Shown here: positions 474 to 63,855 of the stretch, piece by piece | Layout of the letters: each line of letters begins with the position of its first letter | How positions within the stretch are numbered: position 1 is the stretch's first letter | Assembly: GCA_030684355.1 (NCBI GenBank) | Contig: JAUXTN010000238.1 | Coordinates: forward strand, 106,690-170,689 | Source of the DNA: Pseudomonadota bacterium | GTDB taxonomy: Bacteria > Myxococcota_A > UBA796 > SXON01 | DNA length: 64,000 bases | Reading direction: 5' to 3' | Notes under the pieces: model-generated | The model's input: the letters and a program-made list of their open reading frames with translations, nothing else | Told to the model about the DNA's origin: nothing | Database searches by the model: none | Position numbers and translations under genes: made by a program

Positions 474-700
474 CGGGATGCCCGGGACTCGGAGGCGGGC
501 GCTTGCCGCTCCGAGCGGTCTTCGTTCGACAGGACTTCCACGCCCGACGCTACCACGAGAAGCCGGAGCCCATGTCACACGGTACGCGGCGGAGACGCCG
601 GAGGCTGGAGGCGGCGACGCGCGCGCCGTCGGCGGGCCGCGTCGAGGCGGTCCGCTCGCGCCGGGTTGCGCGGATCGCCGTCCCAGGTGCATGGTGGCGG

Positions 701-2254
701 ATGCTCACTCTCGTGCTCCTGGCCTGCTCCGGCGTTGGCGAAGCCCCGCCGGAGCCTCCCCCCGCCGAGGACCCCGGCGACACCGCGCCCCACGAGCTGC
801 TCGTCGCGCCCTTCCTCCAGTCCGTCACCCCCACGAGCGCGTGGATCTGCTGGGAGACGCTCGACGGGGAGGAGACGATCGTGGCGTTCGGCCCCACGGA
901 GGCCCTCGGCACGATCGTGACGGGCACGGCGCTCCCGAACGGCCACGGCGTGCAACACGAGACCCTCCTCGACGGCCTCGCGCCTGACACCTCCTACTGG
1001 TACACCGTCCGCACCGGCGCCACCGTCTCCGCGCCCGTCCGCTTCCGCACCGCGCCCGCCGCCGACTCCCGGAAGCCCTTCCAGTTGGTCGCGGTCAGCG
1101 ACATGCAGCGCGACGACGCCTGGCCCGACAAGTGGGCGGAGGTCGTCGAGGGCGGCATCCTCCCCTACGTCACCGGGACGTACGACGCCGAGCTGCCCGA
1201 GGCGCTCGGCCTGATGCTCCTCGCTGGCGATCTCGTCGACAACGGCTGGAACTACGCGGATTGGACGGGAGACTTCTTCGGTGGCGCCGCCCCGCTCATG
1301 GGCCAGGTGCCGCTCTACCCGGTGCTCGGGAACCACGAGGCCGGCTCCCCCGCGTACTTCCAGTACTTCCACCTCCCCGACAACGGCGTGCCCGACCACG
1401 AGGAGCAGTGGTGGGCGTTCGACTACGTCAACGTCCGGGTCATCGGCCTCGACTCCAACACGGTCCAGACCGTGCCCGAGCAGCTCGAGTGGCTCGACGG
1501 GGTGCTCGCCGAGACCTGCACCGACGACACCATCGAGTTCGTCTTCGCCGAGCTGCACCACCCCTGGAAGTCCGAGCTCTGGCCCGGTGGCGAGGCCTCC
1601 TTCTCCGGGGACGTGGTCCAGCGCCTCGAGGCGTTCAGCACCACGTGCGGCAAGCCCTCCATCCACTTCTTCGGGCACACCCACGGCTACAGCCGGGGCC
1701 AGTCGCGGGACCACACCCACCTCTGGGTGGACGTCGCCTCGGCGGGCGGCGCCCTCGACACGTGGACCTCGACGTCCACGGCGGACTACGAGGAACTCTC
1801 GGTCACCCAGGCCGAGTACGGCTTCGTCGTGGTCGAGGTCCAGCCCGGCGCGTTCACGCTGCGTCGCATCAGCCTGGGGAGCCCCGAGGCCCCGCGGGAC
1901 AGCGAGGTCACCGACGAGATCACCGTGCGCGTCGACGCCGTCCCGCCCACGACACCGACCGTGACGGCGTCGGAAGGCACCCTCGCCGCGAGCCCCTACG
2001 CCGGGAGCGGCGCCCACGGCTCCACCCATTGGCAGGTGAGCGCCGATTGTGACACGTTCGCCGATCCGGTCGTCGACCGATGGGTGCAACACGAGAATTG
2101 GTACCAGGGCATCGATACGCAGGTCGGCGCGGACCTGACCACCCTCCCGCTCGACCCCCTCGCGGCGGGGGACTGGTGCGGGCGCGCGCGCTACCGCGAT
2201 CGCGGGTTGGCCTGGTCGGAGTGGTCGGAGGCTGCGCGGTTCACGGTGCCCTGA
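701..2254 (+). CDS. Calcineurin-like metallophosphoesterase lipoprotein (purple-acid-phosphatase-like)
   Basis: Track ORF 503..2254. The internal ATG at 701 precedes a lipoprotein signal, MLTLVLLACSG. Motifs seen: VSDMQRD, AGDLVDNG, LGNHE, FFGHTHGY. Confidence 0.85.
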   Translation: MLTLVLLACSGVGEAPPEPPPAEDPGDTAPHELLVAPFLQSVTPTSAWICWETLDGEETIVAFGPTEALGTIVTGTALPNGHGVQHETLLDGLAPDTSYWYTVRTGATVSAPVRFRTAPAADSRKPFQLVAVSDMQRDDAWPDKWAEVVEGGILPYVTGTYDAELPEALGLMLLAGDLVDNGWNYADWTGDFFGGAAPLMGQVPLYPVLGNHEAGSPAYFQYFHLPDNGVPDHEEQWWAFDYVNVRVIGLDSNTVQTVPEQLEWLDGVLAETCTDDTIEFVFAELHHPWKSELWPGGEASFSGDVVQRLEAFSTTCGKPSIHFFGHTHGYSRGQSRDHTHLWVDVASAGGALDTWTSTSTADYEELSVTQAEYGFVVVEVQPGAFTLRRISLGSPEAPRDSEVTDEITVRVDAVPPTTPTVTASEGTLAASPYAGSGAHGSTHWQVSADCDTFADPVVDRWVQHENWYQGIDTQVGADLTTLPLDPLAAGDWCGRARYRDRGLAWSEWSEAARFTVP

Positions 2255-2405
2255 GTGGGGGTCGGGTGGAGGTCGGGGGGGGGGGGGCACTGCGGCAACT
2301 GGTTCGCGCGCTCCGTCGATGGACAGGCGCGGGAATGCGGGCTCGCGCCCGTGCCTCCGCGACGCCTCCCCACGGCTTCACGTCCGTGGGGAGGCGCGCG
2401 TCCCG

Positions 2406-4604
2406 TCACTCGTCCTGCGGATCCAGGGCGAGGAACGTGCCCAGGGGGGACCGCGAGCCGGCGGCGCCGACGGCGGGAACGGTGAGGAACTTGTCCGCAG
2501 CCCGGTCGTCGAGGAGGCTGGTGATCGCTTCCTCGTCGCCCGGGTGCCCGTTGGGCACCTTCAGCTCCGGGTGGTCGAACGGCGCCTGCTGGTACCGCAC
2601 CCGCTCGTCCGTGAGCGCGAGCAGGAACTCCACGAGAGCCTCCTCGGCGGTGACCTCGTACCCGTCGATCTCGCGCACGATCTCGTCCAGGCCGAGGGGC
2701 TGGATGTCGGGGTCGAGGTTGCTGTCCTCGTCGCCGAACCCGGTGGTGTCACGGTAGCGCAGGTTGATGCGGTCGCCGCCGCGATTGTAGAACGCCACGA
2801 CCTGGGCGAGCGTCGACCGCCCGCCGTTGTGGAAGTACGGGCCGGTGAGCTCGACGTTGCGCAGGCCGGGCACCTTGAACGCGCCGTCCACCGCCACGCG
2901 CTCCCCGAGGGCGACGGGGCCGGGGACCTCGAGCTCGTCCTCCTTCACGTTGAAGTCGTCGATGATGCTCCCCGTCGACAGCTGCCGCGAGAAGGCCAGC
3001 GGGAAGCCGTTGAACTCCGCGCCCAGGCCGAGGTCCTCGAACGTCGGGCGCACGCCGATGTTGTAGAAGCCACCGTCGTACAGCGCCACGCCGCCGTCGC
3101 CCATGACCATGCGCTCGACCGCCTCCTCGTTGCCGTCGGGCTGGTTCGCCCGCCTCCGCACCGACGCGCCCGTGAACTCCGAGCCGACGTGACAGTTGAC
3201 ACACTTGCCCGCGCCGAGGAAGGTCTCGAGCCCGAACTTCTGTACGTCGTCGAGCGCGTGCTCGTCGCCCGCCATGTAATCGTCGAAGGGTGTCTGGTCG
3301 GAGACCAACGTGGCCTCGTAGAGCTGCACCGCGAGGCCGAGGAACAACGGGAAGTTGACCTCGATCTGGCGGAAGCCGTCGCGGCTTCGCACCGGGTCGC
3401 CGTTGGCGTCGTACCGTCCCTCGCCCACCCAGTACTTGGGCTCGAATGCCCGCCGGATGAGGCCCTCGTAGGTCCCCACGAGCCCCACCCCGCTGCTCGC
3501 GCGGTACTGGGCAAGCACGCTGTCGGCCGAGTGTACCTTCTGAAAGGCGAGCGGGGCGCGGCCGAGGAGCTTGCGCCCGATGTCGGCGTTCGTGCGGCCC
3601 GCGCAGCTCATCTCGAAGTTGTTGGTCGGGGGGCCGACGGCCTGGGAGGCGAGGCTCGCGTTGTCGATGCGCGTCTGGACCTTGCGCACGTAGCCGTTCT
3701 CCAGCGCGAGCACCCCGGGGTAGGGGTTGTCCTGCGTGGACAGGAGGCCCCGCTCTCCGAGCGGGTTGACGCCGTTGAAGATGTTGCTGGCGCGCCCATC
3801 CCAGAAGTTGCGGTGGTTGAACACCGCGTTGATGACCGTGAGCGTGTTGCGCGGCTCGACCTTCCGCACCGGGTCGCCGTCGACGTTGAAGATCTCCCCG
3901 TCCGGGGGGTCGCACTCGTCGAAGAGGCCGTACGTGCGGTCGATCGAGTCGAACTCGCCGCCGAACGTGCCTTGGGAGCTCACCGAGTCGTTCATGTCGA
4001 AGCAGTCGTAGTCCTTGCGGTCCCGATATCCGTCGCCGTCGTTGTCCTTTCCGTCGTGACACGAGTTCCGGTCCTCCGGATCCTCGAGCCGGTGGAACGG
4101 GAAGTCCGCCGCCACCAGCGTGTAGTTGGATCCGGCCACGGCGCCGGAGGCGGTCAGCCCATAGACGGCGTCGCCGAAGTCCAGGTCCGGATCCGGCGCC
4201 CGCTCGGGATCTTCCACGATGTTCAAGCCCGGCGAGAGTTGGTTCTTCACGCGGGGATCGGCGCCCGCGTGGAAATGACAACTCGCGCAGGCTTGGGCGT
4301 CGCTCCCCGCCTGCGCATCCCAGAACAGCGCCTTCCCCAGCGCGATCGCGGCCTGTTCGTCGCGTACGAACTCGCTCAGGTTCGACGGCCGCGGGTTCGG
4401 CACCTCGGCGAGGGGGCCGAAGCCCTTCTCCTCCGCGTTCGCTCGTACATCTCCTTCCACTCCCTCGGCTTCTCCTGGCTGCTCCTCCGCTGGCGCCTCC
4501 GCCTCCTCCACGGGCTGCGTCTCCGCCCATGACAGCCCGCTCCACGTCGCGATGGCGAGCGCCAGTGATGACACACCCAACACCCCGATCCGCATCTCGA
4601 TCAT
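2406..4604 (-). CDS. Di-haem cytochrome c peroxidase / MauG-family protein (unusually long)
   Basis: Track ORF 2406..5240, trimmed to ATG 4604 (MIEMRIGVLGVSSLALAIA signal peptide). It has two CxxCH haem motifs (CASCH, CVNCH) and a C-terminal GLRNVELTGPYFHNGG motif. Confidence 0.9.
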   Translation of the reverse strand: MIEMRIGVLGVSSLALAIATWSGLSWAETQPVEEAEAPAEEQPGEAEGVEGDVRANAEEKGFGPLAEVPNPRPSNLSEFVRDEQAAIALGKALFWDAQAGSDAQACASCHFHAGADPRVKNQLSPGLNIVEDPERAPDPDLDFGDAVYGLTASGAVAGSNYTLVAADFPFHRLEDPEDRNSCHDGKDNDGDGYRDRKDYDCFDMNDSVSSQGTFGGEFDSIDRTYGLFDECDPPDGEIFNVDGDPVRKVEPRNTLTVINAVFNHRNFWDGRASNIFNGVNPLGERGLLSTQDNPYPGVLALENGYVRKVQTRIDNASLASQAVGPPTNNFEMSCAGRTNADIGRKLLGRAPLAFQKVHSADSVLAQYRASSGVGLVGTYEGLIRRAFEPKYWVGEGRYDANGDPVRSRDGFRQIEVNFPLFLGLAVQLYEATLVSDQTPFDDYMAGDEHALDDVQKFGLETFLGAGKCVNCHVGSEFTGASVRRRANQPDGNEEAVERMVMGDGGVALYDGGFYNIGVRPTFEDLGLGAEFNGFPLAFSRQLSTGSIIDDFNVKEDELEVPGPVALGERVAVDGAFKVPGLRNVELTGPYFHNGGRSTLAQVVAFYNRGGDRINLRYRDTTGFGDEDSNLDPDIQPLGLDEIVREIDGYEVTAEEALVEFLLALTDERVRYQQAPFDHPELKVPNGHPGDEEAITSLLDDRAADKFLTVPAVGAAGSRSPLGTFLALDPQDE

Positions 4605-4734
4605 CCCCCTACTCGGTGACCTGGGCGCCGGGCCAAAGGCTGAAACGCAGCCTTTCAGCAAAGTAAATAGTTGTCCGGCGTCCTCCCTCAGGGTAGGCGC
4701 CCGCTGCCGGGCAGACAAGCGGCCATGCCCCCGG

Positions 4735-6039
4735 CTACAAGGCCCCTGGTTCACCCGCCTCCTCCACCAGCGGCCGCCCCTCCACCAGCCGGCAAAGGTG
4801 GTCGTTGAGCAGCCGCCCATCGGGATCGTAGCGCCGCCGCACGGCGTCCCACCGGTCGAACTCCGGGAAGAGCGCGCGCGGGTTCTGGAACCCGAGCTTC
4901 CCCCAGTGGGGGCGCCCGCCGAGGGCGACGAGCCGCCGCTCCACCTCGCGCAGGACGCGGTCCCCTCCCCCGATCCCGGGGCTCCACGCCACGTCCACCC
5001 AGAACACGTCCCGCCCGAGCGCTGGCGACAAGAGCGCGCCGGTGTCCGCGGCGCTCCAACGCAGGTTGATCGGTACGTGCAGCGGCGTCCGGTGCGCCAG
5101 GTCGCGGATGGCGGCCAGCGCCTCGCCCGCCGCCTCGATCGGCACGGCGACCTCCGTGGAGACCGCCCGGTAGCGCCGCGGGCCGACGGAGAGGTGGTCC
5201 CAGCGCCCCACCTGCCGACGCGGGCGGAGCGGGCCGCCACCGAACCGCGCGAGCAGCGCCTGGGCGAGCCGCGGCGCGAAGCGCGCGAGCGTGGTGACGA
5301 GGTGGAGCGGGATGTCCTCGGCCCACAGGCGGTGGCGGGCGAGCGCGCGATGGTCGCGCACGTCCGGGGGCTCGGCGGAGAAGCGGCGGCGGGTGAGCAC
5401 GACGGCGTCGCTCCCCGGCAGCCACCACGCCTCCGTCTGATCGGCGCCGGCGCGCACCTCGGGGTCGAGCACCGCGTCGAGGGGGGCGTGCACCGTCTCC
5501 ACCGCGACCACCGCGCCGCAGGACACCGCCAGGCGCACCTCGGTCACGACGCCGAAGGCGCCGAGGTGGACCCGGAGCGCGGCGAGATCCTCGGCGTCTC
5601 CGGGGCGGTCGGCGTCCAGCTCCACGAGCGCGCCGTCGGGGCGCACCACCGCCATCCCCCGCACCGAGCCCGCGTCGGAGAGGCTCCCGTACCCGACCCC
5701 GGTGCCGTGCGAGGCGGTGGCGATGGCCCCGGCCACCGACGGGTAGGCGCTCGTGCCGACGCGGGGCAGCGACCAGCCGCGCTCCGCAAGCCAGGTGCCC
5801 AGCTCGCCGACGGTGAGGCCGGCGGGGGTGCGCACCTCGGCGCGTTGGGGGTCGAGGACCGGCTCGCCATGCAGGGCCCGCCCGTCGAGGAGCACGCCAT
5901 CGGTCGCGACGAGGCGGCTCGAGCTGCCGCCGACGCCGGCCACCCGGAACCGGGCCGGGAGCGGGCGTACGGTCGCCGGCATGCGCCCGGTCGGCGTGGC
6001 GCGTACGTTCGTGGCCCAGTTGCGCCACTCCGGGGTCAC
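4735..6039 (-). CDS. FAD-linked oxidase, D-arabinono-1,4-lactone / L-gulonolactone oxidase-like
   Basis: In-frame GTG at 6039 overlaps the upstream stop as GTGA. N-terminus VTPEWRNWATNV. It has an FAD-binding PCMH-type region and a C-terminal ALO signature, LGGRPHWGKL. Confidence 0.85.
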   Translation of the reverse strand: MTPEWRNWATNVRATPTGRMPATVRPLPARFRVAGVGGSSSRLVATDGVLLDGRALHGEPVLDPQRAEVRTPAGLTVGELGTWLAERGWSLPRVGTSAYPSVAGAIATASHGTGVGYGSLSDAGSVRGMAVVRPDGALVELDADRPGDAEDLAALRVHLGAFGVVTEVRLAVSCGAVVAVETVHAPLDAVLDPEVRAGADQTEAWWLPGSDAVVLTRRRFSAEPPDVRDHRALARHRLWAEDIPLHLVTTLARFAPRLAQALLARFGGGPLRPRRQVGRWDHLSVGPRRYRAVSTEVAVPIEAAGEALAAIRDLAHRTPLHVPINLRWSAADTGALLSPALGRDVFWVDVAWSPGIGGGDRVLREVERRLVALGGRPHWGKLGFQNPRALFPEFDRWDAVRRRYDPDGRLLNDHLCRLVEGRPLVEEAGEPGAL

Positions 6040-6635
6040 CGCCACACCCGCACGAGCATCCACACCCCGATGGCCGCGAGCCAGACGCCGCAGGCGCGCA
6101 CGAAGAGCCGGGCCCGCGGCGGCGAGAGCGGCCGTCGGCGCAGGAGGGCGGTCAGGATCGAGAACCAGGTGAACGCGCCGAGCCCGACGCCGAGCCCGAA
6201 CGCGGGCGCGGCGGCCGGGACGCGCGGGACCCACGGCGAGACCGCCGCGCAGACCGCCGACCACTGGAGCGGGATCGAGAGGTTCGACGCCATCGTCCCG
6301 AAGCCGAGGAGCAGCGAGCCGGCGCGCGACGGGGGCGTCGCCAGCTCGGGGGCGCCGTTCCGGACGAGGAAGCCGCCGAGGGCCACCACCACCAGCCCGC
6401 CGAGGACCTCGCCCACGTGCGCGGCGCCGGGCCAACGCGCGTAGGCGGCCTCCACCCCCACGAACGCGACGCCGGCGTACCCGGCCTCCGCCACGCTCGC
6501 GCCGATCGCGACCGCGATGGCCTCGCGCGGGCGCCCGGCCATCCCCAACGCGAGGACCAGCACGGCGATCGGCCCCGAGAACGGGATGGACCCGACGAAC
6601 GCGAGGCCGAAGCCGAACAGGAGCGCGATCAGCAC
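6036..6635 (-). CDS. LysE/RhtB-type small-molecule exporter (multi-pass membrane protein)
   Basis: 199-aa ORF made almost entirely of hydrophobic segments, with high third-position GC. Its stop overlaps the next gene's start (GTGA). Confidence 0.7.
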   Translation of the reverse strand: MLIALLFGFGLAFVGSIPFSGPIAVLVLALGMAGRPREAIAVAIGASVAEAGYAGVAFVGVEAAYARWPGAAHVGEVLGGLVVVALGGFLVRNGAPELATPPSRAGSLLLGFGTMASNLSIPLQWSAVCAAVSPWVPRVPAAAPAFGLGVGLGAFTWFSILTALLRRRPLSPPRARLFVRACGVWLAAIGVWMLVRVWR

Positions 6636-6665
6636 GACCGCCCCGCCGCGATGGGTGCAGGACGG

Positions 6666-7190
6666 CTACTCACGCTCCAGCCGCTCCGCGACGAGGGCCA
6701 GCGTGTCCCGCAGCGTGGCGCGGAGCTGGGCCACGACCAACCGCTCCAGCAGCGGGCGGACGGCCTCCCCCACGGCCGCCGGCACCCCGGGGACGCGCTC
6801 CGGGTACAGCGTCAGCTCGCCGTCCAGGCTCAAGAGGGTGTCCTCGCCGTTGGCCTCGAAGCGGTTCGTGCCGCGCGCGCGCATCGCGTCCGGCCAGCGC
6901 TCGTGCCGGTGGCCCCAGGTGACGCTGAAGTCGCTCTCGTCCCAGGTCGAGGTGTCGACCCACTGGAACGCGTTGGCCGGGAAGAGCCCGACCACCGACG
7001 CGGGGAGGCCCGCGGTGGCGCCCGTCCAGCGCTTCACGCCGCGCATCCGGGGCCCGTCGACGTGGACCTCGAGCGTCTCCACGGACGCGACGGACCGCAG
7101 GTCGGAGAGCAGCTCGGGCATCCGGTCCCGCTGGAAACGGAACACCCGCTCCCGTGGAAAGGCGACCGCCTCGGTCAGACTGAAGCGCAC
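6666..7190 (-). CDS. SRPBCC (START / polyketide-cyclase-like) ligand-binding protein
   Basis: This is the 3' part of track ORF 6666..8279. The GTG at 7190 (VRFSLTEAVAFPRERVF..) overlaps the end of the upstream GMC gene by 16 nt. The fold assignment rests on sequence pattern only. Confidence 0.6.
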   Translation of the reverse strand: MRFSLTEAVAFPRERVFRFQRDRMPELLSDLRSVASVETLEVHVDGPRMRGVKRWTGATAGLPASVVGLFPANAFQWVDTSTWDESDFSVTWGHRHERWPDAMRARGTNRFEANGEDTLLSLDGELTLYPERVPGVPAAVGEAVRPLLERLVVAQLRATLRDTLALVAERLERE

Positions 7191-8644
7191 GTGTCCTCCA
7201 CCAGTGCAAGAGCGTTTCGCCGGGCCAGGGCCATGCCCAGCAACATCGGGTTGGCGGCCGGAGAGTCGGGGAACAGGCTCGTGTCGGCCACGACGACCCC
7301 GTCGATGCCGTTCACGCGGCCGCAATCGTCGGTCGCGACACCCATGGCGAGCGTCCCGAAGGCGTGGTTGCTCGCGACGTCGAGATCGCGCGGGGTCAGG
7401 CGGAGCTCCCGGAGCCGGTCCACCTCGTTGGGGCGGATCGGCCCGAGCCCGTGCACCCCGTGCACGAATTCGCGGGCGCCCCCGGCGAAGGAGAGCTCGG
7501 CGAGGTGCACGATGCCGTCCTGGAGGCGGGCGAGGTCGGACGGCGAGATCTCGTAGCTGCGGTCGACGACGCCGCCCGGCAGGAGCCGGATCCGGCCGAA
7601 CGACGACCCCGTCGTCACCCATGTCGCGTAGGAGCCCATCTGGCGGGTGCGGGACAACCACCGCGAGAAGCCCGCGCCCTGCGGGAGCCGCGCGGCGAGG
7701 ATGCCATGCGGCACCCACAGGTCCTCGAGCTTGATCCCGCGCTCCATGTGCGCGGTGCTGTGCAGGCCCTGGGTCGCCCCGACCCACGGCAACACGTCCT
7801 CGTCGTAGAGCGCCATCGCGAACGACGAGGGGTGGAGCTGGAGCCGCTCGCCGATCCCGGGCCCGTCGAGCCCCGACCGGAGCAGGATCGCGGGGCTCGC
7901 CATGACCCCAGCGGCGAGCACGACGGCGTCCGCCGAGACGCGAAACGAGCCCCGCGCCGCGCGGGTCTCCGGGTCGATCGCCATCGCCTCGACCCCGCGC
8001 ACGCGCCCGCCCCGCACGATCAGGCGCTCGACCTCGGCGTGGGTGTAGACGCGTCCGCCGCGCGCGAGCAGCTCGGGTACGCCGCGACGGTCGGCGGAGC
8101 GCTTGGCACCGGTGCGGCAGCCGGTGAGGCACCGCCCGCTCCCGGTGCAGCCGGCGACCATCCGCGGCAGGGCGTCCACCTGCCAACCGAGAGCCTCGCA
8201 GCCCTGCCGGAACCGGGCCGAGCGCGCCCCGATCGCCCCCGCCTCGGTGGGGCGCACCTCGTAGAGCGCCTCGATCCAACGGAGGTACGGATCGAGGTCC
8301 CCTACCCTCACGCGGTGCTCGGCCTCCCAGCGCGCGGGGAGCTCCGCCGGCGGACGCATGCAGATCGCGCTGTTGAACACGCTCCCGCCGCCCAACGCCC
8401 GGGCCTGGAGCGTCGGGGTGGGCGTCGGGCCACGCAGGGCACGGAGGCCCCCATCGTGGAAGTACCGGGCCAGCGTCGTCGCGGTGTCATCCGTCCGCGC
8501 GGGATCGACCGGAGGCCCCGCCTCCAGCAGGATCACCGAGCGCCCGGCCTCCGCCAGCGTCAACGCGGCGACGACCCCGCACGGGCCCCCGCCGACCACG
8601 ACGACGTCGCAGCGCAGCGAGGTGCCGGGTTCAGCCCGCTCCAC
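7175..8644 (-). CDS. GMC-family FAD-dependent oxidoreductase
   Basis: N-terminal Rossmann motif DVVVVGGGPCG..LLEAG. The C-terminal ..VVADTSLFPDSPAANP.. is typical of choline-dehydrogenase-like enzymes. Confidence 0.9.
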   Translation of the reverse strand: MERAEPGTSLRCDVVVVGGGPCGVVAALTLAEAGRSVILLEAGPPVDPARTDDTATTLARYFHDGGLRALRGPTPTPTLQARALGGGSVFNSAICMRPPAELPARWEAEHRVRVGDLDPYLRWIEALYEVRPTEAGAIGARSARFRQGCEALGWQVDALPRMVAGCTGSGRCLTGCRTGAKRSADRRGVPELLARGGRVYTHAEVERLIVRGGRVRGVEAMAIDPETRAARGSFRVSADAVVLAAGVMASPAILLRSGLDGPGIGERLQLHPSSFAMALYDEDVLPWVGATQGLHSTAHMERGIKLEDLWVPHGILAARLPQGAGFSRWLSRTRQMGSYATWVTTGSSFGRIRLLPGGVVDRSYEISPSDLARLQDGIVHLAELSFAGGAREFVHGVHGLGPIRPNEVDRLRELRLTPRDLDVASNHAFGTLAMGVATDDCGRVNGIDGVVVADTSLFPDSPAANPMLLGMALARRNALALVEDTCASV

Positions 8645-8670
8645 CCTTTCGCTCGCCCTTCCCCCGCCGG

Positions 8671-10191
8671 TCAGCTCTCGCGAGTGTCCGTCGGGGGCGA
8701 GGATTTTTTTGGCATTGCCGGAGCCGGAGCGTCGGGCGACCAGGGTGGGGAGGTTGGCCGCGTCAGGAGCGCGCGCATCGCCCCCGCGAAGCCCGTGGTC
8801 GGCAGCGCCGCCGCCGCCTGCCCCAGGAGGGCGCCGCCGCTCGTGCGGACCAGGGCCGCGGCGGGCCCCGGGCCGTCGTACCAGGCGCCCAGCGTGTCAT
8901 CCAACGCGTCGAGGAACGCGCGGACGTCGTCCTGGGTGGTGCACACGGGCGGCAGGATCTTCACGGCGTCGAGGCCCGGGCCCGGGATCTGGACGAGGAT
9001 CTTGTGCTTCCGGTAGAGCTCCACGTGCACCGCGGCCCCGAAGGCGCCAGGATCCGCGGCGGCCAGGGCGGCCTGCTCGGCGCGCAGGCGCAGCGAGCTC
9101 GCGGAGGGGCGGAAGTACACGCAGGCCATCAGCCCGCGCCCGGCGAAACGCTCGATGCAATCGTAGCGCCGCGCCAACGTCTCGACCCCGTGTCGGAGCT
9201 GCTCGCCCAACGCCGCCGCGCGGGCGGGGGCGTCGATCTCGGCCAGGCCGTCCAGCGTGGCGAGCGCCGCGGCCATCGCCAGGTTGTTCTCGGCGAAGGT
9301 CGAGAAGTAGAAGGGGCCGGAGGTGAACGTCGAGAAGACCCGCTGGTACACCTCGTCGGAGACGAGCACCGCCCCCACCGGCACCTGCCCGCCCGAGAGC
9401 GTCTTGGACACCGTCATCATCGACGGCCGCACGCCCATCGCCGTGCTCGCGAACCAGCTCCCCGTGCGCCCGAGCCCGGTCTGGACCTCGTCGGCGACGA
9501 GCAGGGTGCCGTGCTCCTCGCACAGGAGCTGCGCCTCGCGCAGCCAGGCGCGGTCGGTGGCCTCGCAGGTCATGCCCTGCACCGGCTCGACCACCAGCGC
9601 CGCGACGTCCCCCATCCGGAGCTCCTGGCGGAGCTGCTTGAGATCGTTGCGGCGCAGCGGCGTGCACGTCGGCATCAGGGGGTCCTGCCCCTCCCGCAGC
9701 GCGGGGCTGCCACAGAGGGACACCGCCGCGTAGGAGCGCCCGTGGAACGCCCCTTCCAGGTAGAGGAAGCGCCGCCGCCGGGTCACGTACCGGGCGAAGC
9801 GCACGCACACCTCGGTGGTCTCCGAGCCGGTGTTCGCGAAGATCACCTTGGAGAAACCGGGGCCCGCCAGCTCGAGGAGCCGCTGCGCGACCAACCCCGA
9901 CAGGAGCGCCGGGTTGACGACGGTCAGGTTCGCGAGATCCCGCCCGAGCAGGGAGATCAGCGCCGCGTTCACGCCCGGGTGGTTTCGACCGAGGAAGTGC
10001 GCGCCGCCGCCCGAGAGGAAGTCGAGGTAGCGCGTGTCGTGGGCGTCCCACAGGTACTGCCCGTGGCCGCGCACGAAGGTGGCGTCCATCCCCGCGAGCT
10101 GGAACATCTTCAGCAGCTTCGGGTGGACGTGCTCCCCGTTGAGGTGGGCCGCCTCTTCCAACTGCCGGTCGAGGATCGCATCGAAGTCCAT
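8671..10191 (-). CDS. Class III PLP-dependent aminotransferase
   Basis: Track ORF trimmed to ATG 10191 (MDFDAILDRQ). Motifs: ANTGSETTE, ADEVQTGLGRTG, and the PLP-lysine context MTVSKTLSGG. A C-terminal tail of roughly 70 aa is rich in Ala and Pro. Confidence 0.9.
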   Translation of the reverse strand: MDFDAILDRQLEEAAHLNGEHVHPKLLKMFQLAGMDATFVRGHGQYLWDAHDTRYLDFLSGGGAHFLGRNHPGVNAALISLLGRDLANLTVVNPALLSGLVAQRLLELAGPGFSKVIFANTGSETTEVCVRFARYVTRRRRFLYLEGAFHGRSYAAVSLCGSPALREGQDPLMPTCTPLRRNDLKQLRQELRMGDVAALVVEPVQGMTCEATDRAWLREAQLLCEEHGTLLVADEVQTGLGRTGSWFASTAMGVRPSMMTVSKTLSGGQVPVGAVLVSDEVYQRVFSTFTSGPFYFSTFAENNLAMAAALATLDGLAEIDAPARAAALGEQLRHGVETLARRYDCIERFAGRGLMACVYFRPSASSLRLRAEQAALAAADPGAFGAAVHVELYRKHKILVQIPGPGLDAVKILPPVCTTQDDVRAFLDALDDTLGAWYDGPGPAAALVRTSGGALLGQAAAALPTTGFAGAMRALLTRPTSPPWSPDAPAPAMPKKSSPPTDTRES

Positions 10192-11324
10192 CACCAACCC
10201 CCGTCGCGTGAGTAGCCGAAGGCCGTGAAGGCCGATTCCCAGGCGCGGTCGACCCGCGCGCGATCCCGCTCGTCGAGGGCGAGCGCGTTGCGGGTGTACG
10301 GGCCGACGCCCGCCAGGTACGCCCGGAGCGCCGGTTCGCCGCGCTCCCAACCCTGGAGCCCGAGCGTGGCGAACACCTCCCCGAGCACGCCGACCTCGTC
10401 GGCGACGAGATCGTCGTAGCCGATCTCCGCGAGCTGGCCGGCGGGGATCAGGGCGCGATCCGCGAGGTACCGGTCGAAGATCCGCTCGCCGAGGGCGAGC
10501 GTCTGCCGTGCGCGCTCCTCCTCCCACCCCTCGCGCGGGACCTGGAAGAAGTTCTCCCAGTCGGTGTGTGCACGCAGGTGCAACGTGCTCGCGAACACCC
10601 GGTACGGGTGCCGGTGGATGAAGACGAACCGGGCGTCGGGCCAGAGTTGGAGCAAGAGCCGGATGCGCGCGGTGTGGGCGCAGCTCTTGAGCACCACCTG
10701 CCGGCCCTTCGCGGCGTACATCAGCTTCTTCACGAAGTAGCGGAGGGCGTCCTTCCAGGCGTCGACCTCGTCGGGAGCGGCCTCGAGGAAGTCGATGTAG
10801 CGCTCGTAGCGGGGGGCGTCGGCGGGGAACATCGCGCCCAGGTAGGGCGAGAGGCCGGTGAGCTTCGCGAGCGCGATCTCGTCCTCGGCGGCCTCGTCCC
10901 AGCCCATCTTCACGTTGTCGTAGCCGCGGGTCTCGGGGAGGAGCCCCGCGGTCAGCGGGCCGACCAACTCGCGCGTGCCGAGGAAGGAGCCGGGGAAGAC
11001 CACCTGGTAGGTGGTCGGGCAGGTGTAGTCCGGCATCCGGCCGATGCAATTCTGGAGGTGGGTCGTCCCCGAGCGCCAGTGGCCGAGGACGAACAGCGGC
11101 GACGGATCGATCTCGACCGAGGCGATCGCGCGCCCGAACCGGGCGTCCTCGGCGCGCGCCGCGAGCGTGCTCGCCGCCCCGAGCGCGGTGATCCAGGCCG
11201 CGCGCGGCACGTAGGCCGGATCGACCTTCCAGTGGGCGCGGCAGAGGGTGTCCCGCCAGGCGCCGAGCTCCATGCCGGCGAGGAGCTGGCCGGTAGCGAA
11301 CAGGTCGGGGAGAGAGCGTCGCAT
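10191..11324 (-). CDS. PAPS-dependent sulfotransferase family protein
   Basis: 377-aa ORF with a 5'-PSB loop, GHWRSGTTHL, and a later KSCAHTARI region. Both junctions with neighbouring genes overlap by 1 nt (TGATG). Confidence 0.85.
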   Translation of the reverse strand: MRRSLPDLFATGQLLAGMELGAWRDTLCRAHWKVDPAYVPRAAWITALGAASTLAARAEDARFGRAIASVEIDPSPLFVLGHWRSGTTHLQNCIGRMPDYTCPTTYQVVFPGSFLGTRELVGPLTAGLLPETRGYDNVKMGWDEAAEDEIALAKLTGLSPYLGAMFPADAPRYERYIDFLEAAPDEVDAWKDALRYFVKKLMYAAKGRQVVLKSCAHTARIRLLLQLWPDARFVFIHRHPYRVFASTLHLRAHTDWENFFQVPREGWEEERARQTLALGERIFDRYLADRALIPAGQLAEIGYDDLVADEVGVLGEVFATLGLQGWERGEPALRAYLAGVGPYTRNALALDERDRARVDRAWESAFTAFGYSRDGGW

Positions 11325-11713
11325 CAGTTACTCCCGAGGGCGCCGGAGGGGTCGAGCGCGTCGAGCACCGCCGGGCGCTCGGCGTAGTGGAGGAGCAGGA
11401 CGAAGCGCAGCGCCTCGAAGACCTTGCGGGCGGGCCACGCGGGGGCCTCCGAGACCGCGTCGATCCAGGCGCGCCGCTCGGCGGACGTGCCGTCGGCGAA
11501 GGACACGCTCCGGCCGCACCAGACGCCGAAGCCGGTGTCGAAGGCGGTCAGCGTCGCGAGGAACGCCGTACGTTGCGGGGCGGGGATCAAGCGCAGCCAA
11601 TCCTCGATGGACCCCGCCACCCCGGCGCCCGTGCCGTCGATCTCCAGGGGGCGCTCCGACGGCAGCAGGGTCCGCACCAGGGCCGCGAGCGTGCGCCGCT
11701 GCCCGCCCGTCAC
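11324..11713 (-). CDS. Small hypothetical protein (possibly an accessory subunit for the GMC oxidoreductase)
   Basis: This is the 3' part of track ORF 11324..12613. The GTG at 11713 overlaps the upstream stop (GTGA). The sequence VTGGQRRTLAALVRTLLPSE.. resembles small subunits found with GMC-type dehydrogenases, but this is pattern only. Confidence 0.5.
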   Translation of the reverse strand: MTGGQRRTLAALVRTLLPSERPLEIDGTGAGVAGSIEDWLRLIPAPQRTAFLATLTAFDTGFGVWCGRSVSFADGTSAERRAWIDAVSEAPAWPARKVFEALRFVLLLHYAERPAVLDALDPSGALGSN

Positions 11714-13215
11714 GCGCACCTCCGGCGGCGATCCGCGTCCCGCCAGTCGTCGACGATGTCCTTGGGGTGCACCGGCCCGTCGAACGGGCGCCGGGTGAGC
11801 GCGTCGAAGTCGGTCGGGCCGTAGGTCTGCACGAGGTAGCCCTGGCGGAGCACCGGCAGGAACCAAGGCAGCCACAAGAAGAGGCTCTTGACCACCACGA
11901 TGTCCGCCCGCCACACGGAGAGCCCGAGCGCGCTCCAGAAGGCGGGCCGGATTGCGAAGGGCGGCCCCTCCGTGATCGCCAGCGCGACGTGCCCGAGCTC
12001 CAGGAGCACGATGCGCCCGAACGCCTCGGTCTCCCGACGCGCCCGGAGGGTCCCGGTCACGCGCAGCGGGGGCGCGTACTCGCCGGTCAGGTAGCCGCCC
12101 ACGTCGAGGTCCACGCGCTCGCCGTCGGCCTGACGCCAGAGCGCCGCGACCGCGGCCGGATCGCGGATGGGCAGGTAGCTCCGGAGCCCCTCCCCGTGGG
12201 CGAGCAGCGCGCGCAGCAGGCCGGTGTGGTCGCCGGTCGAGCCGGCGCCGACGACGTCGCTCGTGTCGACGAGGCAGGCGCAGCCGAGCTTCCGGAGCCA
12301 CCAGCGCCGCCGCACCGTGCCGATGGCCTCCTCCGCCGACCGCGTCCGGGGCGGCATGGCGCCGCGCACCTGCCACGCCGCGTCGGCCAGCATCTCGGCC
12401 ACGCGCTCGGCGAGCGCGGGGTCCCCATCGGTCACCACGTGGGTCGCCCAGCCGAGATCGGGCGCGACGGACCAGGGATGACAGAGAAAAAGGTTCGCCG
12501 TGACCACCCCCGGCATGCGCCGGGCGCGCGCGAGGGCCCGGTGCAGCGGCAGCATCGCGAGGCCGAAGTCCATGGTCGTGCCGCCGCCGAGGATCATCGG
12601 GAGCGCGCGCCACGCGGTCACCGGGCGGAGGCGCCCCGCCAGCATGCGCAGCAGGAGCTGCATGCCCTCCGCGCCGGTGCGGAAGTGGTCACGATGCGGG
12701 TTGGTGCGGAACGCGACGAGGAGGTCCGCGGCCTTCACCTTCGCCTTGGTGATGTGCGCGTGCAGATCGAGGCACACCGCCAACGCGCCGTCGGCCCCGA
12801 GCGCCGCGCGCGCATCCGCCATGAGCAGGGTCTCGGGATCCTCCACCCCGTCGGCGACCAGCGCGCCGTGGAGCACGAACACCATGCCGTCGAGCGGCCC
12901 CGCCGCGGCGAGCCCGTCGACGAGGAGGCGACGGAGCGCCGAGAACGTCTGGTGCGAGAGCGGGCCGCCCGGCAGGGTCCAGGCGGAGACGATCGGGACG
13001 ATCTCGACCCCGCCGTGCCGCGCCGCCTCGTGCATCGCGCCCGCGAGCTCGGCGCGCCGGATGTAGCCGGGCACCTCCTGCCCGCCGGGGCCGCAGGCGG
13101 CGAGGATCTCGGCACCGACGAGGAGGTGGTGGCGCTGGAAGTCCTGCAGCTCCGCGCGAACCGGGCACAGCGCGTTGGTCTCCTGGGAGATGCGGGCAAT
13201 GGCGATTCGAAGCAT
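11710..13215 (-). CDS. M81-family metallopeptidase (MlrC / microcystinase-C-like)
   Basis: 501-aa ORF. The N-terminus MLRIAIARISQETN.. and the overall layout (DUF1485-like N-terminal domain plus MlrC C-terminal domain) were recognised by eye. Confidence 0.85.
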   Translation of the reverse strand: MLRIAIARISQETNALCPVRAELQDFQRHHLLVGAEILAACGPGGQEVPGYIRRAELAGAMHEAARHGGVEIVPIVSAWTLPGGPLSHQTFSALRRLLVDGLAAAGPLDGMVFVLHGALVADGVEDPETLLMADARAALGADGALAVCLDLHAHITKAKVKAADLLVAFRTNPHRDHFRTGAEGMQLLLRMLAGRLRPVTAWRALPMILGGGTTMDFGLAMLPLHRALARARRMPGVVTANLFLCHPWSVAPDLGWATHVVTDGDPALAERVAEMLADAAWQVRGAMPPRTRSAEEAIGTVRRRWWLRKLGCACLVDTSDVVGAGSTGDHTGLLRALLAHGEGLRSYLPIRDPAAVAALWRQADGERVDLDVGGYLTGEYAPPLRVTGTLRARRETEAFGRIVLLELGHVALAITEGPPFAIRPAFWSALGLSVWRADIVVVKSLFLWLPWFLPVLRQGYLVQTYGPTDFDALTRRPFDGPVHPKDIVDDWRDADRRRRCA

Positions 13216-13318: not shown

Positions 13319-15727
13319 TCACACGAACGTGCAGAGGCGCTCCTGCATGCGCACCTCGTGGTCGCGCAGCTCGGGCGGCCGGCGGTCGAGCACGGCGGCG
13401 AGGCTACGCGTGAGGGCGTCCTCCGCCCGCGCCGCGGCACGCTCGCTGGGGTCGAGGGCCGCGAGCACCCACTGCCCGATCCCGGCGCCGCGGCTGTCGC
13501 CGGCCGACGCCGTCATCCGGATGCCTTGCCGCACGAACGCGAGCCCGTCCCCACCGGTGAGCACCAGCGCGCGCCCCCAGCGCCACCGCGCCCACCCCTC
13601 GAAGCGCACGTCTCCCGCGCTCCCGAGCCGCGCCGCGGCGGTGGCGAAGTGCTGGAGCGCGTCGAGGTCCCCCTCCTCGGCGGCGATGTCACCCAGGGTC
13701 ATCAGCGCCAGCGCCTCGCTCCGGAGGTTGCCGAGCTGCCGGTGCACGGAGAGCGCCTCGGCCACCACGACGCGGGCATCGGACAACGCACCGGCGTCCA
13801 GGTGGCGCACCGCCCGGTTGCCGAGGAGCTGCCCGAGGCACATGCGGTCGTTCGCCTCGCGGAAGCTACGCTCGGCGAGCCCGTCGTGGAGGTCGGACCG
13901 CTCGGGCTGCGCGCGGCGCAGGTAGAGCGTCGCGAGGTTCGCGTGCAACCGCCCCCGGTTCGCGGCGCGGGCGGTGCCCTCCATGTCGCCCAGCGCGAGG
14001 AGGAGCTGCTCCTCGGCGGCGACGAGATCGCCGCGCCCCAGCCACGCGGCGCCGAGGTTCGCGCGGAAGGTGGCCGCCTGGCCGCGATCCCCGAGCCGGA
14101 CGAGCCGCGTGACCGCTTGTTCGTAGAGCACCACCGCCCGCGCCGAGTCGCCGGAGTAGGCCGCGACGTTACCGAGCTGCCCCTCGATCTTGCCGAGGAG
14201 GCGCTCGTCCTCAGCGCCCGCCGCGAGCCGCGCGCCGGTCTCCAGCGCCGTGGCGGCCTCCGCGCGCGCCCCGGACATCGCGCACGCCATCCCGAGCGCC
14301 CAGTGCAGGTGCGCCTGATCGGGGAACCAGGCGAGGAGGGCGCGCAGGCGAGCGGCCCGGGCCGCCATCGACTCGTCGGGGGCGAACTCGTCGGCGGGGA
14401 GCGCGAGGGCCAGGGTCAGCCGCGTGTCGGCGTCCCGGGCGCGGTCGAAGGCGCGGATGCGGTCGGCCAGCGGTGCGCGCGGCCCCAGGCACCAACGCGT
14501 GTGCCGCGCGAGCGCCTCCGCCGGGGCCTCCCCGAGCCACGCGCGGACGGGCGGCGCCAGGCGGAAGCGGCCGTCCGGCTGCCGGGCGAGCCAGTGGTGG
14601 CGCTCTGCCTCGGCGAGCCCGTCGGCCACCTCGACGGCGTCCAGGGCGCCGATCTCCTCGATGGCGTCGAACTCGAACGGGGTCGCGAACACCACGCTGG
14701 CGCGCAGCAGCGCGCGTGAGGGCTCTCCGAGCAGCGCCCAGGACCACGCGAGCAGCGCGTCCAGGCTCCCCTGCCGGCCCCCGCCCTCCCGGCGCAGCAG
14801 GCGGACGTTCCCCTCGACCAGCCGCCGGGCGAGCGACTCGGCCGGGACGGTCGCCAACCGCGCCGCGGCGAGCTCCAGCGCGAGCGGCAGGCCGTCGAGG
14901 GCGTCCACTAGCGTGCGGCCGACTGTGTCATCGAGATCGGGTTGGCGCCGACGCAGGAGGCGGAGGCCGTCCTCCGGGCCGAGCGGCGACAGGCCCAGGG
15001 TGCGCGCGCTGTCAGGGGAGACCCGCGAGGTCACCAACACGCGGTACGCGAGCGCGGTCGAGAGCCACGTCACGACCGCGTCGTGGACGTGCTCCGCGTT
15101 GTCGAGCACGAGCAGCGCGCCGGGCGTGAGCGGCCCGCCCGTGGCGCTCCGGACCGACGCCGCCACGTCGAGCGACGCCGCGTCGGACAGCGACAGGTCG
15201 ACGAACACCCCTTCCTCACGCAGGGCCAGGAGCGCCCGCGCGAGCCGCGTCTTGCCGATGCCGCCGGGGCCCACCAGGAAGAGCTGCCCGGGGGGACCGT
15301 CGGCCCACGTGCAGAGCTCCGCCAGCTCGTCGATGCGGCCGAGGAGCAGCGGATCGGCGGAGGGGGGCGGCACGGGAGACGGGGCGGGTACGGAGGCCGT
15401 GGGCGCGCCCTCGTCCGGTTGCAGCCCGTCGAGCCGGTAGCCGTGGCCGGGGGACGACACGAGGTGCGCCGGCCGCGACGGCTCCGACTCGAGCTTGCGA
15501 CGCAGCCGGTGGACGGTGAAGTCCACCGCGCGGCTCTCCACGCCGGGGTGGTACCCGAACACCTCGCGCAGGAGCTCCGCCCGGGAGACATCGGCCCCCG
15601 CGCGATCCGCGAGGAAGCCGAGCAGCGCTGCCTCGCGTCCCGTCAGGTGGGCGACGGTCGGCCCTCTACGGAGCTCGTTCCGAACGAGGTCGACCTGCGT
15701 GGGGCCGAGCCAGAAGCGGGCGGGCAT
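13319..15727 (-). CDS. Transcriptional regulator: OmpR/PhoB-type winged helix + STAND P-loop NTPase + TPR repeats
   Basis: Track ORF 13319..15802, trimmed to ATG 15727. The winged helix is LTGREAALLGFLA..VDFTVHRLRRKLE..GYRL. The Walker A motif is LVGPGGIGKTRLA. The C-terminal half is repetitive and TPR-like. Confidence 0.85.
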   Translation of the reverse strand: MPARFWLGPTQVDLVRNELRRGPTVAHLTGREAALLGFLADRAGADVSRAELLREVFGYHPGVESRAVDFTVHRLRRKLESEPSRPAHLVSSPGHGYRLDGLQPDEGAPTASVPAPSPVPPPSADPLLLGRIDELAELCTWADGPPGQLFLVGPGGIGKTRLARALLALREEGVFVDLSLSDAASLDVAASVRSATGGPLTPGALLVLDNAEHVHDAVVTWLSTALAYRVLVTSRVSPDSARTLGLSPLGPEDGLRLLRRRQPDLDDTVGRTLVDALDGLPLALELAAARLATVPAESLARRLVEGNVRLLRREGGGRQGSLDALLAWSWALLGEPSRALLRASVVFATPFEFDAIEEIGALDAVEVADGLAEAERHHWLARQPDGRFRLAPPVRAWLGEAPAEALARHTRWCLGPRAPLADRIRAFDRARDADTRLTLALALPADEFAPDESMAARAARLRALLAWFPDQAHLHWALGMACAMSGARAEAATALETGARLAAGAEDERLLGKIEGQLGNVAAYSGDSARAVVLYEQAVTRLVRLGDRGQAATFRANLGAAWLGRGDLVAAEEQLLLALGDMEGTARAANRGRLHANLATLYLRRAQPERSDLHDGLAERSFREANDRMCLGQLLGNRAVRHLDAGALSDARVVVAEALSVHRQLGNLRSEALALMTLGDIAAEEGDLDALQHFATAAARLGSAGDVRFEGWARWRWGRALVLTGGDGLAFVRQGIRMTASAGDSRGAGIGQWVLAALDPSERAAARAEDALTRSLAAVLDRRPPELRDHEVRMQERLCTFV

Positions 15728-18713: not shown

Positions 18714-18848
18714 GGTTTTCTCCGGTGCGCGAGTATGCACGTTCTCGAAATGTTTGCGAGCACCGGGCGGGAGATCGACGATCGCCCCGCGGTCGAGGAG
18801 GTGTCGTCGAAGATGGCGGCATGGCACGCAGCTTGCGAGAGGGCAGGC

Positions 18849-22154: not shown

Positions 22155-22176
22155 CCGTGAGCCCGCCAGGTAATGT

Positions 22177-22191
22177 GTGAACGTCATTCAC
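22177..22191. promoter_or_regulatory. Candidate TetR operator (inverted repeat GTGAA-CGTCA-TTCAC)
   Basis: A perfect 5-5-5 palindrome lies in the short divergent region between the TolC and TetR genes. ACGTCA also occurs twice here. Confidence 0.4.
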
Positions 22192-22213
22192 GTCAAGAAG
22201 GACGGCTCACGAC

Positions 22214-34578: not shown

Positions 34579-34633
34579 CACCGAGCGGGCGTTCTGGCGC
34601 CCTGGACCTTGACAAGGCGCTTGGGAGGGGGAC

Positions 34634-60760: not shown

Positions 60761-63852
<3,092 letters not shown>

Positions 63853-63855
63853 CGG

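Follow-up and report, generated by a model that had tools for sequence, protein, structure and literature searches.

A conserved sulfotransferase and aminotransferase cassette within an eight-gene bacterial operon, with a probable role in making and exporting a sulfated amine

In the biosynthesis of neomycin and butirosin, a GMC enzyme and a class III aminotransferase (NeoQ and NeoB) turn a CH2OH group into CH2NH2. GMC enzymes oxidise alcohols, and class III aminotransferases of the PigE and YgjG type act on aldehydes and terminal amines, not on alpha-amino acids. Both families are also represented in the locus described here, where they stand beside a sulfotransferase in a block of genes on the minus strand of a 64,000-nucleotide stretch of contig JAUXTN010000238.1 (positions 106,690 to 170,689 of the forward strand; assembly GCA_030684355.1, a Pseudomonadota bacterium placed by GTDB in the Myxococcota_A). 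This whole stretch is referred to as the window, and unqualified coordinates are positions within it. The block, at 4735-13215, is a real eight-gene operon, consisting of a central cassette (G2-G7) that is conserved across several phylum-level labels and two end genes (G1 and G8) that accompany the cassette in one lineage only. The cassette probably serves to make and export a sulfated amine that is new to science, and no description of the cassette, or of this combination of genes, was found in the literature.

Operon layout and gene families

The genes of the operon, in the order in which they would be transcribed, are:

11710-13215, minus strand: G1, M81 (MlrC-like) metallopeptidase, 501 aa
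11324-11713, minus strand: G2, PF13618 small protein, 129 aa
10191-11324, minus strand: G3, sulfotransferase of the type dependent on 3'-phosphoadenosine 5'-phosphosulfate (PAPS), 377 aa
8671-10191, minus strand: G4, class III aminotransferase of PigE/putrescine type, 506 aa
7175-8644, minus strand: G5, GMC-family flavin adenine dinucleotide (FAD) oxidoreductase, 489 aa
6666-7190, minus strand: G6, DUF2505/SRPBCC (Bet v1-like) protein, 174 aa
6036-6635, minus strand: G7, LysE-type membrane exporter, 199 aa
4735-6039, minus strand: G8, divergent ALO/alditol-oxidase-type flavoenzyme (VAO fold), 434 aa

Minus-strand coding is unbroken from approximately 4740 to 13200, and a frame plot of G+C content at third codon positions (GC3) switches frame exactly at the proposed junctions, all eight gene models giving clean translations. 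As the G+C content of the window is approximately 73%, mechanical lists of open reading frames (ORFs) are rich in false frames: the true frame of G6 ends at 6666, the mechanically listed ORF at 6670-7209 being in the wrong frame. Adjacent genes overlap by 4 nt in the sequence GTGA (11710-11713 between G1 and G2, and 6036-6039 between G7 and G8), by 1 nt at 11324 (G2/G3) and 10191 (G3/G4), and by 16 nt at 7175-7190 (G5/G6). The only gaps in the block are of 26 nt (8645-8670, G4/G5) and 30 nt (6636-6665, G6/G7). A purine-rich stretch lies 6-11 nt 5' of most of the start codons, and within the block a consensus scan detected neither a promoter-like site nor, on the minus strand, a terminator-like one. 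The original prediction, which was made from the sequence of the window, had proposed these eight genes with their families, five overlaps and two gaps of under 35 nt, and a tight coupling of the genes as one unit. The frame plot, Pfam matches and orthologues bear out the first of these, the gene models the second, and the overlaps and lack of internal signals the third. Only G7 has membrane segments, and no protein of the operon has a signal peptide, which implies that the enzymes are cytoplasmic; a PAPS-dependent step requires this location. None of the operon enzymes reaches an NCBIfam equivalog cutoff.

For comparison, 80 loci from species-representative genomes and ten contigs obtained by exact protein look-up were searched with the proteins of the window, by tblastn first and then with iterated profiles. 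A clustering of six-frame ORFs was dropped, because it produced spurious high-GC ORFs and its GC3-filtered version fused adjacent genes.

The assignment of G3 as a PAPS-dependent sulfotransferase is made by profile, loop and fold, and its activity is predicted. Residues 76-327 match the Pfam profile Sulfotransfer_3 at 106.2 bits against a cutoff of 27, following an N-terminal helical extension of 75 residues, and the 5'-phosphosulfate loop HWRSGTTH (residues 82-89) is nearly invariant among 17 homologues. For the AlphaFold model (predicted local distance difference test score of 86.6) the top fold matches are all sulfotransferases, the best being mycobacterial Stf1 (2zq5) and Stf9 (2z6v) with a template modelling score (TM) of approximately 0.65 and 18-20% identity; tyrosylprotein sulfotransferases also appear among the matches (TM approximately 0.45). 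Relatives of G3 number in the hundreds, and the best 120 are all at least 51% identical, approximately 378 aa long, and derived from Myxococcota, Oligoflexia and metagenome-assembled genomes (MAGs) labelled Alphaproteobacteria. Some homologues have been named omega-hydroxy-beta-dihydromenaquinone-9 sulfotransferase (Stf3) by the automated annotation of the Joint Genome Institute (JGI). A plasmid collection contained only distant sulfotransferase relatives, at most 38% identical to G3.

G4 matches Aminotran_3 at 227 bits and carries DEVQTG at residue 234 and the SK-motif lysine at 263, both of which are invariant in 19 orthologues, as well as a low-complexity C-terminal tail. Its nearest solved structures are PigE (4ppm, 4e-52, residues 19-364) and YgjG (4uox), and its top NCBIfam model is that of PigE (NF053554). 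It was rejected as a true PigE, as it scores 292 bits against a cutoff of 850 and corresponds to the aminotransferase half only, lacking the two-domain architecture of approximately 840 aa. At residue 411, within an A-x-K-x-L-P-P motif, a lysine that is invariant in 19 aligned orthologues takes the place of the arginine of PigE (VKILPP against IRIQPP). In class III enzymes this position binds a substrate carboxylate, and the substitution may be a signature of the clade that alters the binding of donor or substrate.

Both GMC_oxred_N (134 bits) and GMC_oxred_C (53 bits) are matched by G5 above the Pfam cutoffs. Its motifs comprise GGGPCG at residue 18 and, near the C terminus, NHAFGT and AANP, which contain His427 and Asn465 respectively, the residues that we take to be the C-terminal active-site pair of GMC enzymes. 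Matches to solved GMC enzymes are all distant: the aminoglycoside oxidase 7dve aligns with the last 60 or so residues only (E = 5e-7), and the large subunits of glucose and fructose dehydrogenases with the N-terminal FAD-binding stretch only. The small protein G2, previously left unnamed, is assigned by profile to PF13618 (gluconate 2-dehydrogenase subunit 3; 25 bits, cutoff 23.4), and its orthologues in two other loci (L085 and L086) match the same family. In a profile search of 25 loci, G2 and the GMC gene are present together in 18 and both missing in six; the remaining G2-bearing locus, the 19th (L018), is cut by the end of its contig. This strict co-occurrence, together with the PF13618 match, points to G2 being the partner subunit of the GMC enzyme in a two-subunit flavoenzyme. 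The PF13618 domain begins at residue 5, leaving no room for a signal peptide, and G2 has no hydrophobic stretch; the lack of a Tat or signal sequence suggests that the pair is cytoplasmic. No cytochrome gene is found in the cassette in the window, in L085, in L086 or on the P0002 contig, the sulfotransferase of which is 85% identical to G3. Since a small-subunit partner is typical of dehydrogenase complexes, G5 may be a dehydrogenase rather than an oxidase.

G6 itself reaches 17.9 bits with the DUF2505 profile, short of the cutoff of 26.9, and no solved structure was matched significantly in a profile search. Within its family DUF2505 is matched by 11 of 12 members (best E-value 1e-7) and Polyketide_cyc2 by four of the 12; both are Bet v1-like families. 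Orthologues adjoin the sulfotransferase gene in 12 other loci, mostly in divergent orientation, the arrangement being co-directional in L091, which belongs to the lineage of the window. G6 appears to be a ligand-binding or carrier protein. G7 has four or more hydrophobic segments and reaches 16.7 bits with the LysE profile, short of the cutoff of 25.6; its orthologues in the corresponding place of L011, L014, L015 and L087-L089, as well as the one on the P0002 contig, match LysE clearly. The position that follows GMC is filled by a LysE, EamA or small SMR-like transporter according to lineage, families that move small polar or cationic molecules, and their recurrence there suggests export rather than uptake.

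Of the two end genes, G1 matches the M81 domains DUF1485 (237 bits, profile positions 1-287 of 290) and MlrC_C (95 bits, 1-171 of 178), its nearest solved structures being microcystinase C (7ylq, 1.7e-36) and 3iuu. Its identification as a true MlrC was rejected, with 131 bits against the cutoff of 999 for NF041767. G8 matches ALO (98 bits) and FAD_binding_4 (48 bits) and scores 174 bits against TIGR01679, under the cutoff of 292; the nearest solved structures are the FAD-binding protein 8ot8 and the alditol/xylitol oxidase AldO (2vfr). The orthogroup of G8 has four members, the next relatives being generic actinobacterial ALO proteins at most 39% identical. In all four, the histidine of the GxGHSF motif, which aligns with the covalent-FAD histidine of alditol oxidase, is replaced (GVGGSS) and approximately ten neighbouring residues are deleted, while HGTG is kept and RPHWGK is invariant; generic ALO homologues retain both the histidine and the ten or so residues. 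The orthogroup is a divergent ALO subfamily, and the loss of the covalent-FAD histidine suggests that its members, like G5, may be dehydrogenases rather than oxidases.

Distribution of the cassette and its end genes

In each of the 25 loci where the sulfotransferase is 50% or more identical to G3, a G4-type aminotransferase is encoded in the same orientation no more than 7 kb away. These cassette aminotransferases are 49-64% identical to G4 by tblastn and usually lie immediately downstream of the sulfotransferase gene. Sulfotransferases of at most 42% identity, from Verrucomicrobiota, Planctomycetota and others, are found without the cassette aminotransferase and GMC genes, a few of them having an unrelated aminotransferase (approximately 33% identical) nearby, and two sulfotransferases at 47% identity are also without an aminotransferase. 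One Myxococcota MAG, TF_7 (L010, L022), has a copy 53% identical to G3 in a full cassette and a second, 47% identical, with neither aminotransferase nor GMC gene nearby, which marks the boundary of the cassette clade. A reverse search starting from the aminotransferase found two further contigs with sulfotransferase, aminotransferase, GMC and LysE genes in order.

The aminotransferase and GMC proteins are fused in four cases (L084, at 10137-13184 with 1015 aa, and P0189, P0248 and P0253), with total lengths of 720-1015 aa. The P0253 fusion comes from a Mycobacterium MAG and is named 3-acetyloctanal aminotransferase by NCBI. The existence of these fusions implies that the two activities are coupled. 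The six loci that lack both GMC and G2 all have the sulfotransferase, the aminotransferase and a divergent DUF2505 gene beside the sulfotransferase.

The cassette spans Myxococcota, Oligoflexia, MAGs labelled Alphaproteobacteria, and Actinomycetota, and it is represented in well over a hundred protein clusters from lake, soil and marine samples, its cultured carriers including two Enhygromyxa salina assemblies. It is hence more widespread than could have been seen from a single window. Scattering of the genes in related genomes, the outcome named in the original prediction as counting against a shared pathway, is not seen for G2-G7, which retain their linkage across phylum labels. Family membership, catalytic motifs, linkage and fusions are all directly observed.

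Some variation between lineages surrounds this core. In L003, L008 and L019 the sulfotransferase and aminotransferase genes are separated by insertions; in the 17-20 kb region of L003 and L019, two cassette loci that lack a GMC gene, the gene between them encodes a TPR protein of 690-760 aa, and an asparagine-synthase-type amidotransferase follows the aminotransferase. An MMPL-type transporter of 874-911 aa lies approximately 3.5 kb upstream of the sulfotransferase in L011, L087, L088 and L089, and approximately 9 kb upstream in L014, these being loci of the Nannocystaceae/Enhygromyxa type; in L087 an acyl-carrier-like PP-binding gene stands beside it. Tad pilus genes, DUF1571, TPR and AsnB-like proteins and large FAD/Fe-S oxidases were considered as parts of the cassette and rejected, as they recur within sub-clades only.

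The two end genes are distributed quite differently. M81 and ALO genes accompany the cassette only in the close lineage of the window, represented by the P0002 contig, the L001 fragment and L091, of which L091 and the P0002 contig reproduce the operon layout of the window. In L090, an ALO relative (46% identical) overlaps an M81 relative (47% identical to G1) by 4 nt without any cassette. The operon therefore appears to be a composite, in which an M81/ALO pair that can stand alone has joined the cassette in a single lineage. The order of genes is ALO then M81 in L090, as against M81, cassette and ALO in the window, which implies that this was not a simple insertion of the module. The L090 genes are part of a row (1-6733) made up of a TonB-dependent receptor, an Exo_endo_phos phosphoesterase, ALO, M81, FxsA and a TPR protein, and judging by these neighbours the ALO and M81 module there possibly serves uptake and breakdown. 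On a 1.9-kb contig (L092, 32-1833), an ALO relative of 44% identity lies in convergent orientation to a gene for a distant sulfotransferase-like protein, which shows 32% identity to G3 over 166 aa. A metagenome scan with the M81 protein found no confirmed relative, and one with the ALO alignment yielded for the most part generic ALO proteins of 29-39% identity, none of which has an M81 gene in its vicinity.

This distribution does not support the view of the eight genes as one conserved pathway, since M81 and ALO are tied to the cassette in one lineage only. What survives of the original prediction as a whole is the coupled unit, the conservation of its core and the lack of a polyketide synthase (PKS) or non-ribosomal peptide synthetase (NRPS) core, none being present nearby among the genes scanned around the operon.

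Proposed pathway and alternatives

The interpretation that we favour, at somewhat better than even confidence, is that one co-transcribed and translationally coupled operon has been assembled from two units, a cassette that would convert an alcohol to an aldehyde and then an amine, with sulfation and export, and an M81/ALO addition. G5, with its partner G2, would oxidise the substrate alcohol to a carbonyl, most likely an aldehyde, which G4 would convert to a primary amine. G3 would then transfer sulfate from PAPS, yielding an amino-alkyl sulfate ester if the acceptor is another hydroxyl and a sulfamate if it is the newly formed amine. G6, as an SRPBCC protein, would bind the substrate or an intermediate, and G7 would export the product. 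The second unit, G1 and G8, placed at the ends of the cassette by the lineage of the window, would supply the substrate or modify it further, for instance through the cleavage of an amide by G1 and the oxidation of a second alcohol by G8. The order of these reactions, their biosynthetic direction, the kind of substrate and the position that is sulfated are all proposed from sequence comparisons.

Several points weigh against this scheme. The roles given to M81 and ALO are guesses. The six loci without GMC and G2 imply that oxidation of an alcohol is not obligatory and that the carbonyl can be obtained elsewhere. G4 could also work in reverse, turning an amine into an aldehyde, and its invariant Lys411 in place of the arginine of PigE means that donor or substrate binding may differ from that of the characterised relatives. 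The nearest solved relatives of G3, Stf1 and Stf9, are at 18-20% identity, and the matches obtained assign no substrate to them. Finally, the indications of polarity conflict: the LysE, EamA and SMR-type exporters suggest a small polar amine, while the SRPBCC protein, the Stf-like sulfotransferase, the affinity of G4 to PigE and the MMPL transporter suggest a lipid-like or amphiphilic molecule. The product classes named in the original prediction, a sulfated metabolite resembling an amino-sugar, an amino-polyol or a lipid, are not told apart by the sequence data.

This last group of features leads to the alternative that best withstands comparison with the data, namely that the same chemistry is performed on a lipid of the membrane or envelope (a long-chain or isoprenoid alcohol, for example), with a sulfated amino-lipid of the envelope as the product. 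Besides the closeness of the G3 fold to the mycobacterial Stf enzymes, some homologues bear the JGI name of a menaquinone-type sulfotransferase; SRPBCC proteins have an association with the binding of lipids, the substrate of PigE, the aminotransferase closest to G4, is a medium-chain aldehyde, and the MMPL transporter is found upstream of the cassette in the five loci listed above. Yet the transporters within the cassette itself are of LysE, EamA or SMR type, none of the enzymes has a membrane anchor, and the cassette contains no conserved fatty-acyl reductase or lipid synthesis gene; furthermore, the linkage to MMPL is limited to one clade and may reflect shared descent. A lipid substrate is accordingly to be taken seriously, if unlikely.

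A narrower form of the favoured alcohol-to-amine scheme would have three consecutive reactions on one carbon, from alcohol to aldehyde to amine to N-sulfate, with alkyl or polyol sulfamates as the exported products of what would be a widespread bacterial route. To our knowledge no bacterial biosynthetic pathway for such sulfamates has been reported, and we consider this version distinctly unlikely.

The cassette might instead be catabolic or detoxifying, with G4 converting an amine to an aldehyde, the GMC enzyme oxidising this to the acid by way of the hydrate, in the manner of choline oxidase, and sulfation tagging the product for export. Class III aminotransferases are reversible, the nearest relatives of G4 include the catabolic putrescine aminotransferase, and the ALO/M81 pair of L090, behind its TonB-dependent receptor and phosphoesterase, resembles an uptake and breakdown locus. 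This direction is nevertheless improbable, as PAPS-dependent sulfation is costly, and we know of no bacterial catabolic route in which it takes part; only exporter families are present, with no conserved uptake transporter in the cassette, and there are no conserved downstream genes for assimilation.

It is harder still to accommodate a product of the iminosugar type, formed by amination of a keto-sugar or polyol, oxidation of the distal alcohol by GMC and ALO enzymes, cyclisation to an imine and later sulfation. In the azasugar clusters of bacteria, a class III aminotransferase is found together with a dehydrogenase and a phosphatase. Certain features of the oxidative enzymes agree with such a substrate: G8 is nearest to alditol/xylitol oxidase, GMC-type enzymes with a small subunit are typically sugar dehydrogenases, PF13618 having been defined on gluconate 2-dehydrogenase, and the large subunits of glucose and fructose dehydrogenases are among the weak matches to G5. 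These are offset by the lack of a conserved phosphatase or sugar kinase in the cassette, by the absence of G8 from almost all cassettes and by the position of G4, which is nearer to enzymes acting on aldehydes and terminal amines than to any known sugar-acting enzyme, so that this reading has little to recommend it.

Very improbable is a peptide-modifying system similar to that for methanobactin, in which a residue would be sulfated, the terminus modified by the aminotransferase and the peptide trimmed by M81. Tyrosylprotein sulfotransferases are indeed among the fold matches of G3, an M81 peptidase heads the operon, and methanobactin operons can hold a sulfotransferase, an aminotransferase and a di-haem peroxidase, a CCP_MauG gene of this last kind adjoining the operon here. 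However, with intergenic gaps of at most 30 nt there is no space in the operon for a precursor-peptide gene, and the peptidase is missing from nearly all cassettes. A methanobactin-type operon was rejected, as MbnA, MbnB and MbnC are absent among the genes scanned, no MbnB-like or MbnC-like gene, nor a match to any other methanobactin component, being found in the flanks.

That the genes are neighbours by chance or shared descent, without a joint function, is scarcely credible and for the core already contradicted, because despite the restriction of M81 and ALO to one narrow lineage, the core is linked across several phylum-level labels at 50-60% protein identity, its linkage survives rearrangements (divergent or co-directional DUF2505 genes, and the insertions in three loci), and gene fusions exist.

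Few sulfated small molecules of bacterial origin are known, and most of their pathways belong to large natural-product clusters. As it has no PKS or NRPS core, the cassette is probably overlooked by standard cluster finders. Identification of its product would add a class of metabolite, a sulfated amine and possibly a sulfamate, and would give a function to five families with poor annotation: to the Stf-like clade, to the PigE-like clade with lysine for arginine and to the cytoplasmic GMC/PF13618 pair, and likewise to DUF2505 and the ALO subfamily without the histidine. Because cultured strains of Enhygromyxa salina carry the cassette, its function is directly testable.

Flanking genes and comparison with known systems

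Three features beside the operon may bear on its expression:

13319-15727, minus strand: G0, candidate regulator with a Trans_reg_C winged-helix domain, an AAA ATPase domain and a long C-terminal region, 802 aa
13245-13273, no strand assigned: perfect 11-bp inverted repeat, ACGTGGTTGCA, 7-nt spacer, TGCAACCACGT
4635-4655, minus strand: short hairpin, AAAGGCTG, 5-nt loop, CAGCCTTT

G0 (Trans_reg_C at 62.6 bits, weak AAA_16; start codon ATG at 15727) is encoded on the strand of the operon, and its stop codon lies 103 nt upstream of G1. On the P0002 contig the operon is likewise preceded by a gene for a protein of the same architecture (791 aa), and a profile search of the fetched loci found no protein of this type at other cassette loci. 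This position and domain content make G0 the likely regulator of the pathway. The inverted repeat sits in the 103-nt gap between the stop of G0 and the start of G1 and may be an operator or an RNA hairpin, perhaps acting in attenuation; a sigma-54 promoter in the repeat was rejected by eye, the spacing of GG to GC being wrong. The hairpin lies approximately 80 nt beyond the stop of G8 in an A+T-richer stretch, without a T-run, and was missed by the consensus terminator scan; it is a possible end of the operon.

Directly downstream of the operon is the gene for the CCP_MauG di-haem cytochrome c peroxidase (2406-4604), which encodes a long N-terminal extension and has a lower G+C content than its surroundings (approximately 68% against 73-78%). 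On the other side, 15825-18728 encodes a large, secreted-type MopE/FG-GAP surface protein with five MopE-like metal-binding repeats (CDGxDNDCDG); repeat proteins of the MopE-like and FG-GAP kinds are typical of Myxococcota. At 20823-27092 there follow a TolC-like outer-membrane protein, a divergent TetR regulator and, judged by translation only, a probable RND pump, which together with the AcrB-family pumps at 57091-60423 and 60757-63855 makes three RND systems in 64 kb. The window also contains genes for a purple-acid-phosphatase-like metallophosphoesterase (452-2254), a cytochrome P450 (27108-28343), an EAL-domain protein (34613-35659), a TadG-like pilus protein with a fasciclin protein (48887-50876) and a P-type ATPase (52887-55358), none of which is linked to the cassette in other genomes. 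The genes of the window point to a member of the Myxococcota.

Each enzyme of the operon comes from a known superfamily and can be set beside a described relative. G3 and the mycobacterial enzymes Stf1 and Stf9 share a fold over nearly the whole chain, including the N-terminal helices, and the PAPS-binding loop; this is in spite of the low identity between them, and the resemblance to Stf3 is one of annotation name. PigE, which acts in the biosynthesis of the 2-methyl-3-n-amyl-pyrrole (MAP) moiety of prodigiosin, is the nearest characterised relative of G4 and has in common with it an insertion before the C-terminal domain. By contrast, G4 has no equivalent of the N-terminal domain of approximately 370 residues in PigE, falls far under the model cutoff and has lysine in place of arginine. 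The combination of an FAD catalytic subunit with a PF13618 subunit is that of gluconate 2-dehydrogenase, fructose dehydrogenase and the Burkholderia glucose dehydrogenase, from whose classical periplasmic complexes the cassette pair differs in having no cytochrome subunit and no Tat or signal sequence on G2.

The end genes and the wider gene content show a similar mixture of likeness and difference. Microcystinase MlrC (7ylq) is the solved structure nearest to G1, with both M81 domains matched in full length, although no other mlr genes accompany G1, which is paired instead with an ALO-type enzyme. AldO and 8ot8 are the corresponding relatives of G8, sharing HGTG and RPHWGK, but G8 and its three orthologues are without the histidine of the GSGHSF motif and the adjoining ten or so residues. 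The sulfotransferase of methanobactin operons, like most of their aminotransferases, falls in other Pfam families than G3 and G4.

The systems most similar in logic are NeoQ/NeoB and their counterparts BtrQ/BtrB and LivQ/LivB, responsible for the 6'-amination of neomycin, butirosin and lividomycin, in which the same pair of families carries out the reactions proposed here. The similarity of these enzymes to G5 is marginal, and the cassette of the window contains no aminoglycoside genes. Beyond what these systems contain, the cassette adds a sulfotransferase, a PF13618 small subunit, an SRPBCC protein and an exporter, and what is new is therefore the joining of a compact, putative alcohol-to-amine pathway to sulfation and export.

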